This document shows positions 56,836-60,136 of a stretch of 64,000 nucleotides of DNA, piece after piece. The notes under the pieces were generated by a model, which saw only the letters and a list, made by a program, of their open reading frames with translations, did not search any database and had not been told where the DNA came from. Positions within the stretch are counted from its first letter, which is position 1; the number at the start of each line of letters is the position of its first letter. Both the position numbers and the translations under genes were made by a program. This stretch comes from Lama guanicoe (Eukaryota): positions 1,685,518-1,749,517 of the forward strand of contig MU053810.1 in NCBI GenBank assembly GCA_013239625.1, in the 5' to 3' direction.

Positions 56836-56865
56836 GGGTAGTTCTCAAATATAGGTACAATTGCC
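56836..56865. mobile_element. MER5-type hAT-Charlie element, left piece (interrupted by the retrocopy)
   Basis: gtagttctcaaatataggtac resembles the recalled MER5 terminus cagtggttctcaaa...; short, so supported mainly by its continuation at 59997. Confidence 0.5.
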
Positions 56866-57171
56866 GGCGGACGGGGGCGCGCCGTGCAGGGGCCGAGCTG
56901 GCGAGGTCCCGGCCGCTGCCGGCTCCGCGCGCACCGACAGTACGGTGCCTGGCGACGTGGACCAGGGGCGCATGACCTCGGAGGGCCCCGACGGCCGCTC
57001 CAAGTGCATCGTGCGGCCGCTGAGCAAGGACGCGTGCAGCCGGGTGTGCAGGACTTTTACACGGCGGAGACCGTGAGCTGCTCCTGCGCGGCGCCGCCCT
57101 CCTCGCCCAACCCCTGCGAGAACGAGTGCAAGATGGAGAAACTCAAGAAACAGGCACCCGAGCTCCTTAAG
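56866..57171 (+). pseudogene. OLFML2A: OLFML2A-derived retrocopy, exon-derived part (5' UTR/exon 1 remnant fused to exon 2); frameshifted, lacking the start ATG and signal-peptide core
   Basis: Frame A reads [39 protein letters not shown] and frame B reads [40 protein letters not shown]. Recalled human OLFML2A reads [39 protein letters not shown]...[46 protein letters not shown]. There is no intron at the recalled exon 1/2 junction (56944/56945), and a frameshift near 57047-57051. Confidence 0.9.
56866..57171. promoter_or_regulatory. CpG island (retrocopy-derived)
   Basis: About 39 CpG dinucleotides counted by hand in 306 bp at very high GC, inside an otherwise CpG-poor intron. Regulatory activity is not shown. 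Confidence 0.75.
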
Positions 57172-57539
57172 ATAGATTTTCTGGAGTAAAGGCAGGGATG
57201 GGAACCCCTCCTGTGTGAATACATAGCGTGGGCTGGCGCCAGGCTGTACCTCCAATGAAAAGTCCACACATTCTGAGGCGGGACTGTTACCCCATCTCGC
57301 AGCGGAGGACACAGAGGATCCCTGAGCGGAAGCCATTCCCTGCCCGCCTGAGCCCATGGGGCCAGTCAGTGATGGAGGCAGCATTCTTCAACTAGTTTAC
57401 TGACTCTAACCCCTTATCACCTAGTCCGGTGTCCTGTATTTTCCCCAAATCAGGTCATCTGTTGGCACCTCCATGGAGTATTTTAAATTTTAAATTTTGT
57501 GGCATTTGATTGTGTTTAACGTCTAGTAACATTTCCCAC

Positions 57540-57720
57540 ACTCACGTACCACCAATGTGCTACATGTTGTGCTAAGCTCTTCTTACACATTATTTCTCTA
57601 AATTCGTAAACCATTCTGTGAAATATGGGATCTTTGTCCTCATTTTATAGGCAAGAAAGGTGAGGCTTGGAGAAGTCAGGTACCTGGCCCAAGCTCTCAC
57701 ATGCGGCCTCAAGTCCATAC
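57540..57720 (-). mobile_element. MIR SINE inside the retrocopy's intron-like part
   Basis: tgtgctaagctcttc...cctcattttataggcaagaaaggtgaggcttggagaagtcaggtacctggcccaag. Confidence 0.65.
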
Positions 57721-58789
57721 CATTCTTCTATGTGAATTTTGTACTTATAACCTGCCCCGCCACCATAGGAAGATTAGAAAGCGGCACCACCTCTGGGCGA
57801 CACAGCCCCGTGCGGGGCCCACCAGCAGGCGCATGGCTTGGCGAGGCACGTGCAGGCTAGATCACAGCCCCCCAGCCAGCCAGGCACCTCTGCGCCGTCC
57901 ACACCATGCTCGATCTGCTGTTTGGTGGGCCTGGTGGGGTTGGGATTTGAACTCAGGTCCTGCTGTGTCCCAAGCATGTGTTCTAAATCACCCTGCTCTC
58001 CTGTCTTCCGTTTTGCAATAGCCCAGATAATTTGGTGGCTTTTGAGATTTCTTCCAAACGTTTATCTATTTTGCCCTTTTTGTGCCAAGAACTTTGAAGT
58101 TGCCTAAAATGTTACCCTACTTGTTAGCCTGCCAGTCTCATGGACGCTGTCGGAAGACACAAGCCAGGGACAAAGGACTTTATTACTCAGAGTGTCTCCA
58201 CTTTCTTCTACTGTTTCTCCCACTCCACTTCCCACAGGGTGATGCTGTGAGGGCCACATAACACCTGCACACGCGGGGGGATGTTTTCCGAGAGAGGAGC
58301 CCCAACTTAGAGAATCCAGATCTTCTATAACAGGCACTGAACATGCCTTCCCTGCTCCAGAGGGAAATAGTCTCTGGATGTTCCAAGGCTGCTCACTGTA
58401 CAAGACAGCCTGGAAGAAGGACACCCAGTGCCTCTGTAGGCAAGGCTTGCAGAAAAGCAAAAGGCCCGTGAGCAGCTGTCTCCCAACATGTGGTTAAAAA
58501 TGTTTTCTCAATATAACTTCAGTTTTATTTTTGTAACAACTGAATGGATACCAAAACTCTCAAAGTTGTTGGTAGGAAGAGGGGTTAACTTTTAGGCCAA
58601 GTGGCCTCTTGACAGTTTATGAGTCCCTGGGCCACACTGTTTCCCTGGGGACCCACTAGGGTCCTGCAGACTCCAGGCACTGAAGCCATAGGCTTCAGTG
58701 GGAGAAACTCAACTTTCAGATCTACTTCTCAGTAACTGAATTGTAAGCATGACATGAGGATACACAAAACCCTTTTTTAAAATGCTGGT

Positions 58790-58960
58790 TAATATAATTC
58801 TTGCTACAACCTTTTGGAGAGGGAACTTACCAAAGTTCCCAGCTTTACCTGGGGGAGGAGGAGGAATCTGAAGCCCAGAGAGGGATTGTGACTTGCCTAA
58901 GATCACATGGTAACAAATTGGCAGCACTAAGATTTGAACCCGGTAATTCTCTGCTGTGTC
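58790..58960 (-). mobile_element. MIR SINE inside the retrocopy's intron-like part
   Basis: gaggaatctgaagcccagagagggattgtgacttgcctaagatcacatgg...ggcagcactaagatttgaaccc. Confidence 0.7.
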
Positions 58961-59831
58961 CACTTGCCCACTGGAGTGGTCACTAGACAGTTCTCTCAGC
59001 CAGGAGCCCACTGGCCCTTAGGCCCTTCAGTGCACAGCAGCTGTGGGGGTTTTTATTCAGCCTTAGAGGACTGGAGGGGGGCAGTGGTGGGATTAACCCA
59101 GCAGGTGGGGTTGTAGGAGGAACACAGAGAAGATGCTCTGCTTCCCTGACACTGTTGGAGCAGGAGTGAGTACCTGAGAGGTACCCAGAGAGCCCCAGGA
59201 GGAGAAGCAGACAGAGACAGAGTGAGACAGGGCTGAGGCCTCTCCCATTTGGCTTAGCTCCCCCTCCCTCAGCCGGGGGCTCTCCGTGGACAGCCCCCCC
59301 AGGAAAGAAGGTTAGGGGAAGCCACTGTGGAGAGGGACAGGGCACACCCTGTCTCTACCCCACCCCTTCCCCTCCAGCTAAGAACTCCAGCTGTGATGTG
59401 GCATAACTCTGAGTTAGAGGGATGGGGTTCTAGATCCCCTTTCTTGGGGAGGTTGGCTTCAGGGGGCGTACCTTTCACCTCTTCATCCCCTTTCCTTCTG
59501 GGCATGAACTAGACATGGCCCCACTGTTGAGGAATCCCTAGTCTTGTGGGTACACAGCTTCTGACCTTGGTAATGAAAAGACTGATATTATGGTCAAAAG
59601 AGAGCGTTTAATAAAATAATGGTCAGCGCTGGGCCAAGGGACATCCCAGGGACCATGGGAAACCAGGGGAGGAGGTAACATTAGAGCTGGGCTTTGAGGG
59701 ACGTGTAGGCGTCCCTCAGACAGAGCAGAAATAAGGACATTCTGGATGAGAGTCAGTAGGGTGGGTGTGACCTGGGGTGCCTCCCTGCCCTCTCTCTGCC
59801 CCAGCACTAGCCCCTGTCAGTTCCTCTGACA

Positions 59832-59983
59832 CAGTGCTTCTCAAACTGTAGGGGTGAAAGACCAATTTTTTTTTAAAGATCTGTCAAGAACGAATACTTC
59901 TGTAAAATACCATAAGAATGAATTGTTAGAGAAATGAAATGGAATGGAAACTGATGTGCAAAGTAAAACCCAGTGTTGTATTG
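59832..59983. mobile_element. hAT-Charlie (Charlie4-like) fragment truncated by the poly(A) tail
   Basis: cagtgcttctcaaactg terminus followed by gtgaaagaccaatttttt...atacttctgtaaaatac...aatgaattgttagagaaatgaaat. Family name from recall. Confidence 0.55.
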
Positions 59984-59996
59984 AAAAAAAAAAAAA
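59962..59996 (+). terminator. Variant polyadenylation signal AGTAAA followed 16 nt later by an A13 tract (retrocopy tail)
   Basis: Sequence aAGTAAAacccagtgttgtattgAAAAAAAAAAAAA; spacing is typical of a PAS-to-cleavage site. Confidence 0.6.
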
Positions 59997-60136
59997 GCAT
60001 TGCCACAGGAGCTTGTTAAAATGTAGAGATCTCTGAAACCCTCCAAGGTCCAGAGCGGAGCTTGGGGATTTAACATTTTAATGAACCACTTAACGGGATC
60101 CCAGGGTAATCTGAGGCCAGCTCGGTGAAAATGCTG
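59997..60136. mobile_element. MER5-type hAT-Charlie element, right piece
   Basis: ggagcttgttaaaatgtaga...cattttaa...cccagggtaatctgaggc...gtgaaaatgctg follows the recalled MER5A layout and lacks its first ~25 bp. Confidence 0.65.

Follow-up and report, generated by a model that had tools for sequence, protein, structure and literature searches.

A dead, semi-processed OLFML2A retrocopy in a PLXDC2 intron of Lama guanicoe

The PLXDC2 intron and its insert

The window analysed in this study, a stretch of 64,000 nucleotides of Lama guanicoe DNA on contig C1724, contains an exon of PLXDC2 and, downstream of it, an insert related to the 5' part of another gene (Table 1). The host exon was located by a cysteine-spacing scan followed by protein and protein-to-genome searches. 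Its 40 amino acids are 98–100% identical to PLXDC2 proteins in the protein search, and the exon has AG/GT borders. A protein-to-genome search using a PLXDC2 protein (P0193) as the query placed 14 of its 22 matches on the plus strand of C1724, and the PLXDC2 exons around the insert were found at C1724:1735681-1735773 and C1724:1763399-1763551, the latter being the next exon, outside the window. Same-strand PLXDC2 exons thus lie on both sides of the insert, which agrees with an earlier note on this DNA that placed it in sense orientation in a PLXDC2 intron. Pfam domain searches of the genome yielded 54 matches for PSI and 13 for NIDO, none of which is on C1724. Two weak matches out of 45 for nebulin repeats are on C1724, about 375 kb downstream and on the opposite strand; taken with the human gene order, they hint at synteny only.

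At about position 56866, where the abrupt start of a GC-rich block had been described, the GC content goes up from 0.42 to 0.67. P0020, the pig OLFML2A protein, has just two matches in the window, at 56918-57046 and 57031-57186 (E 1.4e-29), which corresponds to the proposed N-terminal OLFML2A peptide in two frames. About 2.8 kb of GC-richer sequence continues after this peptide-coding block, up to an AGTAAA hexamer and a run of 13 A residues, both of which were found as claimed. No Rfam match was obtained at gathering thresholds in 56000-60600, and Tandem Repeats Finder returned no rows.

Table 1. Coordinates of the features in the window.
Feature	Position	Strand	Basis or remark
PLXDC2 exon of the PSI domain (about aa 327-354), upstream in the host	50164..50246	+	tblastn with P0193, 96% identity
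5' target-site duplication, ATTGCC	56860..56865	+	identical to the hexamer at 59999-60004
Exon-1-derived part (5' UTR and signal peptide end)	56866..56944	+	shortened here, without ATG
CpG island borne by the retrocopy	56866..57171	.	GC, CpG count, observed/expected
Exon-2-derived part (Cys-rich N-terminal region)	56945..57171	+	collinear with C3686:5528302-5528039
Retained OLFML2A intron 2, first about 2.88 kb	57172..59983	+	gapped alignment to C3686:5528038-5525163
Poly(A) signal hexamer	59962..59967	+	AGTAAA in the copy, AATAAA in the parent
A13 poly(A) tail	59984..59996	+	parent has TTAGAGTCCACAGG at the homologous place, no A-run
3' target-site duplication, ATTGCC	59999..60004 (possibly 59994-60004)	+	
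Right flank: old copy of a dispersed interspersed repeat, the insertion target	60004..60081	+	pattern and nhmmer

The structure of the OLFML2A copy

The genome search using a 3,118-base query from the insert found 25 matches: the insert itself, 23 short repeat matches with 69-93% identity that cover 44-197 letters of the contig, and a single long match at C3686:5525163-5528303(-). This OLFML2A locus on contig C3686 is the one long relative of 56866-59996 in the genome. Judged from its sequence, the parent gene is OLFML2A: among the 120 hits listed for its exon-2 peptide, OLFML2A-named proteins of mammals and birds show 91-100% identity, the pig OLFML2A protein maps seven further exon blocks, and OLF-domain exons lie downstream. 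The exon-1 part that corresponds to the copy (C3686:5536553-5536329, 225 bp) ends in ..GACAGTAAG|GT, and intron 1 (C3686:5536328-5528303, 8,026 bp) has GT..AG borders; the border strings are ..GACAGTAAG|GTACGC and ..TTTTGCAG|GTGTTTGG. Intron 2 of the parent, which follows exon 2 (C3686:5528302-5528039), is about 4,940 bp long, and the pig OLFML2A tblastn placed exon 3 at 2.06 kb beyond the copied part. The exon ends that the earlier note gave for human OLFML2A are borne out in this gene (exon 1, ..RADSK|GT; exon 2, ..APELLK|GT).

The insert lacks intron 1 exactly at the parental splice borders, as expected of a retrocopy. Exons 1 and 2 are joined at 56944|56945 (..gacagtacg|gtgcctgg), and the border of exon 2 and intron 2 is at 57171|57172, from where the copy follows intron 2 of the parent over its first 2,876 bp. 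The matches to the parent are split as predicted, to exon 1 and then to exon 2 contiguous with intron 2, the first 79 bp of the copy matching 8 kb further upstream. Alignment of 57172-59983 to the PLXDC2 intron of other species would have reduced the insertion to its first 300 bp or so; this part aligns to OLFML2A intron 2. From 56944 to 59982, the alignment to the parent is in one piece, with 87.1% identity over 3,194 columns, 208 of which are gap columns; counting substitutions alone, the copy differs by 7.4%. The exon-2-derived part (p-distance 7.5%) is broken by deletions of 19 and 18 bp, and the intron-2-derived part (p-distance 7.4%, K2P 0.078) has undergone 21 indel events. The short dispersed-repeat matches inside the insert are all collinear with the parent, and the exon-2 donor at 57172-57173 is AT in the copy versus GT in the parent. 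With intron 1 lost and 2,876 bp of the roughly 4,940-bp intron 2 kept, the insert belongs to the semi-processed retrocopies.

The exon-1-derived part is 79 bp long in the window versus 225 bp in the parent, and it matches C3686:5536553-5536329 in three pieces (56863-56903, 56905-56920, and 56918-56946). Contigs of other samples have additional letters at 56903, the window seemingly being without about 95-137 exon-1 letters, and in the X12 and X17 contigs additional parent-like letters were seen at 56900-56918. Since these exon-1 letters are present in other samples, the shortening is either confined to this assembly or due to sequence having been collapsed in it. Local errors of the assembly are seen elsewhere in the window as a gap-flanking 2-kb duplicate.

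At its 3' end, the copy has an untemplated poly(A) tail preceded by a poly(A) signal, and the homology to the parent stops 16 nt past the hexamer. In the X17 contig, the tail has 4 letters fewer. ATTGCC does occur at both ends of the insert, as had been noticed, with GC (59997-59998) separating the 3' copy from the A13 tail. The insert is therefore flanked by a target-site duplication, of which the perfect repeat is short (6 bp); by our own arithmetic, the chance of a 6-base match at fixed junctions is about 2e-4 per register. Contigs of the relatives X15 and X17 have seven more letters (AATTAAG) behind 56858. If these were ancestral, the duplication would be AAGAATTGCC (5') versus AAGCATTGCC (3'), a 9/10 match that depends on seven letters present only in the relatives' contigs. 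The L1 endonuclease has the nicked-strand consensus TTTT/AA. The target site as it stands in the window is unlike it, and the relatives' version would read TCTT/AA.

The two flanks had also been proposed to rejoin as one MER5-type element, a claim that stood for the right flank as a dispersed repeat and was not supported for the left. A 24-mer of the right flank, allowing up to 3 mismatches, had 37 matches in the genome, the window's own included, versus 0 for the reversed control. A profile of 19 other copies matched the right flank at profile positions 112-186 with an nhmmer E value of 3e-9, a match that is partly circular because the retrieval pattern was taken from that flank. The left flank scored no better than chance against this profile, 1860 of 2000 shuffles scoring at least as high. 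Whole-genome DNA searches with each flank found the window itself only, and blastn of the flanks against the DNA sequence collection gave no match.

The source RNA and alternative origins

We conclude that 56866-59996 is very probably a dead semi-processed retrocopy of OLFML2A, derived from an RNA with intronic polyadenylation and inserted by L1 in the PLXDC2 intron. The source RNA would have begun 118 nt ahead of the ATG, close to the 5' end of the gene, with intron 1 spliced out and the exon-2 donor left unspliced. Cleavage and polyadenylation at the AATAAA site 2.88 kb into intron 2 would have created a composite terminal exon. Target-primed reverse transcription by LINE-1 into the PLXDC2 intron, in the host orientation, would then have produced the poly(A) tail and the short target-site duplication. 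We infer that L1 was the inserting enzyme and that the intronic poly(A) site is probably a real cleavage site in vivo. A protein of 144 aa (P0244), one of 59 short relatives examined, has exactly this make-up, exon 1 being joined to exon 2 and the reading continuing into intron 2; it comes from one contig and could be the DNA of another retrocopy. The locus would then be a clean record of a non-canonical transcript, in which intron 1 was spliced and the end lay at the intron-2 poly(A) site. The predicted short OLFML2A isoform would comprise the signal peptide, the Cys-rich region, and five read-through residues.

Retained intron sequence, common as it is in nuclear RNA, could also reflect a nascent unspliced pre-mRNA as the template, L1 reverse transcriptase having primed within an A-rich stretch of it to give the 3' end. 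No such stretch is present in the parent where the homology stops (TTAGAGTCCACAGG), and a canonical AATAAA lies 16 nt upstream, which is the normal spacing; we regard this origin as improbable. Still less probable, in our judgment, is a source allele whose exon-2 donor had mutated from GT to AT, forcing read-through into intron 2 and leaving the mutation preserved in the copy. The AT at 57172-57173 is what such an allele would leave, and the X17 contig, which covers 57172, has no difference there among the 40 of 161 differences listed, which would put the donor change before the species split, if so. However, a single substitution at a given site is no rarity in a neutral copy over the time before the split, a donor mutation is not required for intronic polyadenylation, and the present parent has GT.

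The remaining alternatives have next to no weight. A DNA-level duplication, segmental or repair-mediated, that carried the 5' portion of OLFML2A to PLXDC2 would account for 2.8 kb of intron sequence collinear with genomic DNA, but is scarcely credible given the exact absence of the 8,026-bp intron 1 at its GT..AG borders, the untemplated A13 located 16 nt past the parent's AATAAA, the target duplication, and a homology that begins within the 5' UTR and not in the promoter. A misjoin of OLFML2A sequence into the PLXDC2 intron during assembly could be suspected from the poorly covered GC-rich start with its seemingly missing 95-137 or so exon-1 letters and from the duplicate flanking a gap; it has hardly any chance of being correct, since an insert that is 7.4% from the parent and without intron 1 is not misplaced parent sequence, and three independent runs supply contigs across the 5' junction and one across the 3' junction. 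At the 5' junction, X1 and X12 cover 56500-56903, and X17 covers 56500-56900 and continues beyond; at the 3' junction, X17 record 22 covers 58977-60400; no X1 or X12 contig across the 3' junction is among the rows listed. The demand of the earlier note that the junctions be spanned is thus answered by independent contigs at both ends, including those of a relative about 4% diverged. One X15 contig reaches no more than 21 letters past the junction and is not counted as bridging.

A functional protein-coding retrogene for a short secreted Cys-rich peptide might be imagined from the retained 5' end and from an ORF of the orthologue annotated in Camelus ferus, but we consider it excluded for practical purposes, as there is no intact conserved ORF. 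The coding part in the window is split into two frames by the 19-bp deletion, has no ATG, and has lost cysteines (CRCKC to GRSKC), and the Camelus ORF, which begins at an internal Met, terminates in a frameshift. The two lineages bear different lesions. The OLFML2A copy is dead. We also rejected X17 as evidence of expression: it is labelled RNA, yet the word depth is even over flank and insert (about 17-19) and its contigs reach 35 kb. It thus behaves like DNA and says nothing for transcription.

The Camelus protein (P0290, 'hypothetical protein') shares with the window copy 6 residues that differ from the parent. This annotation, a 76-aa ORF of the orthologous copy, means that the locus had not gone wholly unnoticed, contrary to what had been supposed. 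We found no literature describing the locus, and the papers mentioning both OLFML2A and PLXDC2 are, by their titles and abstract openings, expression lists. OLFML2A did not appear among the top matches listed for its combination with retrocopy, pseudogene, and camelid, and a search for literature linking intronic polyadenylation with retrocopies found none. The insertion is older than the split of the window's species from the relative about 4% diverged, and its age is roughly twice that of this split; any absolute age would have to be inferred. The insertion can serve as a lineage marker for camelid phylogeny.

CpG retention and known relatives

A CpG island is defined by the Gardiner-Garden and Frommer criteria as at least 200 bp with a GC content of at least 0.5 and an observed/expected CpG ratio of at least 0.6. 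The exon-derived part satisfies this definition: over 56866-57172 (307 bp), the GC content is 0.71 and 39 CpGs give an observed/expected ratio of 1.02, while the ratio is 0.23 in the intron-derived part and 0.18-0.41 in the flanks. The exon-derived part kept 19 of 22 parental CpGs versus 9 of 27 in the intron-derived part (Fisher p 3.7e-4), and the non-CpG divergence of the two parts is equal (5.8%). This suggests indirectly, with a reasonable balance of probability in favour, that the OLFML2A 5' UTR and exons 1-2 have formed an orphan island that has escaped methylation in the camelid germ line from the insertion onward. That the island now acts as an internal promoter or as a methylation-dependent, possibly allele-specific, regulator of PLXDC2 is an unlikely extension. 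The locus amounts to a natural experiment with one insertion of one age, in which the CpG-dense exon part kept its CpGs and the intron part lost them. The contrast bears on whether CpG density alone shields transposed DNA from germ-line methylation.

CpG islands derived from retrocopies in introns have been described (PMC4122923; PMC3839921), and about 75% of such human islands are given as fully methylated in somatic cells in the former study (PMC4122923). The same study reports promoter activity and imprinted methylation, by experiment, for PPP1R26P1 in RB1 intron 2 (Rademacher et al. 2014, PMC4122923). The two loci are alike in that a truncated retrocopy brought the parent's CpG-rich 5' part into an unrelated host intron, where it is still a CpG island. 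They differ in that experimental promoter and imprinting data exist for PPP1R26P1, while the OLFML2A copy is known for CpG retention at the sequence level alone. A regulatory role would make the island the camelid counterpart of PPP1R26P1 in human RB1.

Semi-processed retrocopies have been described as a class (PMC3449122), and rodent preproinsulin I is one of them (Soares et al. 1985, as cited in PMC3449122 and PMC5470649). Both preproinsulin I, as portrayed there, and the OLFML2A copy arose from a partly spliced RNA retroposed to a new location, with a poly(A) tail and flanking direct repeats. Unlike in preproinsulin I, the intron retained in the OLFML2A copy is incomplete, the RNA having probably ended at an intronic poly(A) site, and no downstream exons follow; moreover, the copy has no upstream promoter and is dead, whereas preproinsulin I is functional. 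Exact intron loss, a poly(A) signal and tail, a target-site duplication, and an unlinked site are shared with the classical processed pseudogenes made by L1. Those are typically fully spliced, end at the normal 3' UTR, and in many cases are 5'-truncated, whereas the present copy has its 5' end preserved and stops within intron 2. The locus does not overturn current understanding; it is a clear but ordinary gene fossil of a type already known. Shemesh et al. in 2006 are said to have treated processed pseudogenes as fossils of alternative transcripts, and the OLFML2A retrocopy resembles their cases in preserving a non-canonical parental isoform.

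The insert, its host gene and its flanks

At 56866 the GC content of the window climbs from about 0.42 to 0.67, and up to about 59990 it remains higher than in the flanks. Comparison of the pig OLFML2A protein (P0020) with the whole 64 kb gave two pieces only, 56918–57046 and 57031–57186, in two frames (E 1.4e-29). The GC jump, these matches, and the AGTAAA, A13 and ATTGCC ends (Table) bear out the observation of the earlier note, a GC-rich block that encodes an OLFML2A peptide over two frames and has these ends.

Table. Features of the retrocopy (window positions) and of the parent OLFML2A locus (contig C3686 of the same assembly)
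Feature	Position	Description
ATTGCC, 5' copy	56860–56865	immediately ahead of the GC-rich block
AGTAAA in the copy	59962–59967	16 more bases before the A-run
A13 run	59984–59996	then GC
ATTGCC, 3' copy	59999–60004	same hexamer as the 5' copy
Parent exon 1	ATG at C3686:5536435	signal-peptide exon, end ..RADSK; GACAGTAAG, then donor GTACGC
Parent intron 1 acceptor	C3686:5528303	TTTTGCAG
Parent exon 2		88 codons, VFGDVDQ...APELLK; ends AAG, then donor GTAGAC

A PLXDC2 protein (P0193) matched the genome at 22 places, 14 of which are exon matches on the plus strand of the contig holding the window (C1724), five of them inside the window. The other eight, which are weaker (45–74% identity), lie on the minus strand at C1600:2043948–2074776, probably the paralogue PLXDC1. 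The insert occupies C1724:1742383–1745513, between the PLXDC2 exons at 1735681–1735773 and 1763399–1763551, and the same-strand exon matches on both sides uphold the proposed intronic position and sense orientation. A 40-residue exon at 27763–27882 shares 98–100% identity with the plexin domain-containing protein 2 of numerous mammals, and scanning the window for cysteine spacing revealed a PSI-like exon at 50155–50232(+) plus further exon-like ORFs; PSI and NIDO domain scans gave no match on C1724. The PLXDC2 exon for residues 38–109 occurs twice outside the window with equal scores (C1724:1611808–1612023 and 1617260–1617475, 5.45 kb apart), reflecting either a tandem exon duplication or an assembly artefact. 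Two 1.96-kb segments (35928–37890 and 38034–39994; 99.4% identical) directly abut a 143-N gap (37891–38033) and are probably an assembly duplication around it; the PLXDC2 exon at about 40222–40344 follows shortly downstream. On the opposite strand, about 375 kb past the downstream end of the window, lie two weak nebulin-repeat matches (C1724:2123396–2127560, minus), consistent with a NEBL-like gene next to PLXDC2, the order found in human.

Twenty sequencing runs from 10 studies contain part of the stretch, and contigs of four runs from other samples (X1, X12, X15, and X17) were compared with the window at 93% likeness. Those of X1 and X12, mostly 99% or more alike, cover the left flank and reach 38 letters past the 5' junction, to 56903, bridging it. 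X17 and X15 diverge by about 3.8–4.5% (X17: 145 differing letters in 3,783 aligned); one X17 contig spans the 5' junction and another (58977–60400) the 3' junction, so this relative also has the insertion. X17 has a poly(A) run shorter by four letters, which indicates that tail length differs among lineages.

The perfect target duplication is 6 bp. Behind 56858, the X15 and X17 contigs (two runs of the diverged relative) carry seven extra letters, AATTAAG, which X1, X12, and the window do not have. With these letters the 5' duplication reads AAGAATTGCC versus AAGCATTGCC at the 3' end, 9/10 alike if the relative's 3' copy is identical to that of the window, and the nicked strand would be TCTT/AA, near the L1 endonuclease consensus. 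The earlier note held that the flanks rejoin into one MER5 element. The right flank is indeed part of a dispersed repeat: a 24-mer from it has 37 genomic matches including its own (reversed control, 0), and a profile from 19 of the other copies matches the flank with an E of 3e-9. The similarity of the left flank to the consensus of the same profile is at chance level (1860 of 2000 shuffles score equal or higher), leaving a single element plausible but unproven.

The parent locus and the source RNA

A search of the 2.05-Gb assembly with 56866–59983 returned 25 matches: the copy itself, 23 short repeat matches (69–93% identity), and one long match at C3686:5525163–5528303 (minus strand). In blastn, 56944–59982 aligns there as a single collinear piece (87.1% over 3,194 columns, 208 of them gaps), and the first 79 bases of the copy match three pieces within C3686:5536553–5536329, 8 kb further upstream. 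The exon-2 peptide matched 553 proteins at E ≤ 0.001, and the named ones among the best 120 are olfactomedin-like protein 2A (OLM2A in birds; 91–100% identity). Two OLF-domain exon matches, of 18 PF02191 matches genome-wide, lie downstream on the same strand of C3686.

At 56944|56945 the copy reads gacagtacg|gtgcctgg, which together with the parental borders shows that intron 1 (8,026 bp) is missing precisely at the splice borders. The copy then runs beyond the exon-2 donor (57171|57172) into intron 2. Pig OLFML2A places exon 3 at C3686:5523098–5522949 and later exons down to 5512517; intron 2 is thus about 4.94 kb long, of which the copy retains the first 2,876 bp, ending 2.06 kb before exon 3. 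At 57172 the donor of the retained intron has AT in place of the parental GT, which may be a chance change or a relic of the source allele; the X17 relative has no listed difference there, and the substitution may therefore be older than the split of the two species. About 38 bp at 59576–59619, with AATAAA-like words, are absent from the parental intron 2, either by insertion in the copy or by deletion in the parent.

In a global alignment, the AGTAAA of the copy corresponds to AATAAA in the parent, and homology stops 16 nt on, where the parent continues as TTAGAGTCCACAGG without an A-run. This arrangement indicates cleavage of the RNA at a canonical poly(A) site within the intron, with A13 added afterwards. 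As for internal priming on an A-rich tract, the parent's lack of an A-run at that point and its canonical signal 16 nt upstream argue against it. A DNA-level copy is excluded by the untemplated A13 after the intronic signal. The most economical source would be an OLFML2A transcript that had lost intron 1 by splicing and was polyadenylated within intron 2. Its predicted product would comprise the signal peptide and the Cys-rich region, with five read-through residues (VDFLE) after them. One of the 59 short relatives examined, P0244 (144 residues; another species, one contig, library type unspecified), has the same exon 1–exon 2–read-through arrangement, a hint of such a transcript.

Decay, age and CpG content

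The retrocopy is dead: its exon-2 part has 19-bp and 18-bp deletions, its reading frame is split, cysteines are lost, and the copy in the window has no ATG. The missing ATG is peculiar to this assembly. An X12 contig continues beyond 56903 with 30 exon-1 letters resembling the parent, the 17 letters of the window at this place correspond to 154 in X17, and an X1 contig has a joint there; this 80%-GC exon-1 stretch was either lost by collapse during assembly or is truly deleted in the animal assembled. Another X12 piece carries the parent's letters at three diagnostic sites (57168, 57172, and 57177) and probably represents OLFML2A itself, aligned to the copy at the 93% setting, rather than a copy variant.

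Copy and parent differ by 7.4% (K2P 0.078), alike in the exon-2 and intron parts, which exceeds the species divergence about 1.9-fold. If rates are equal, the insertion has about double the age of the split from the relative; scaled by camelid split dates, we infer an age of the order of 20–45 million years. P0290, a 76-residue "hypothetical protein" labelled Camelus ferus, shares six residues with the copy that are unlike the parent and has different lesions; it is the orthologous copy, picked up by automatic annotation.

The exon-derived 307 bp still satisfy the sequence thresholds for a CpG island (GC 0.71, 39 CpG, observed/expected 1.02), a point absent from the earlier note; the ratio is 0.18–0.41 in the flanks and 0.23 in the intron-derived part. 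In aligned columns, 19 of 22 parental CpGs are kept in the exon-2 part and nine of 27 in the intron part (Fisher p 3.7e-4); of the 18 CpGs lost from the intron part, 14 now read TG or CA. Non-CpG divergence is 5.8% in both parts. The simplest reading of these patterns is that the CpG-dense part may have escaped germ-line methylation since insertion.

Relation to known retrocopies

No published description of the locus was found in a search of literature outside subscription journals. The five papers found to name both OLFML2A and PLXDC2 are expression lists, judged by titles and abstract openings; none of the 12 best matches listed combined OLFML2A with retrocopy or camelid terms, and none was found joining "intronic polyadenylation" and "retrocop". 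The locus is thoroughly documented, can serve as a marker and preserves a record of a putative OLFML2A isoform, but it is not surprising. Retrocopy-derived intronic CpG islands are already known, including RB1/PPP1R26P1, and in a human survey about 75% of such islands were methylated in somatic cells, whereas about 15% were unmethylated (PMC4122923). The locus shows the features that define L1-type retrocopies (exact intron loss, an untemplated A-run, a target duplication) as well as those of the semi-processed subclass covered in reviews (PMC3449122, PMC5470649). Unlike in the textbook semi-processed retrocopy, the retained intron is shortened here by an intronic poly(A) site, and all downstream exons are therefore absent from the copy.
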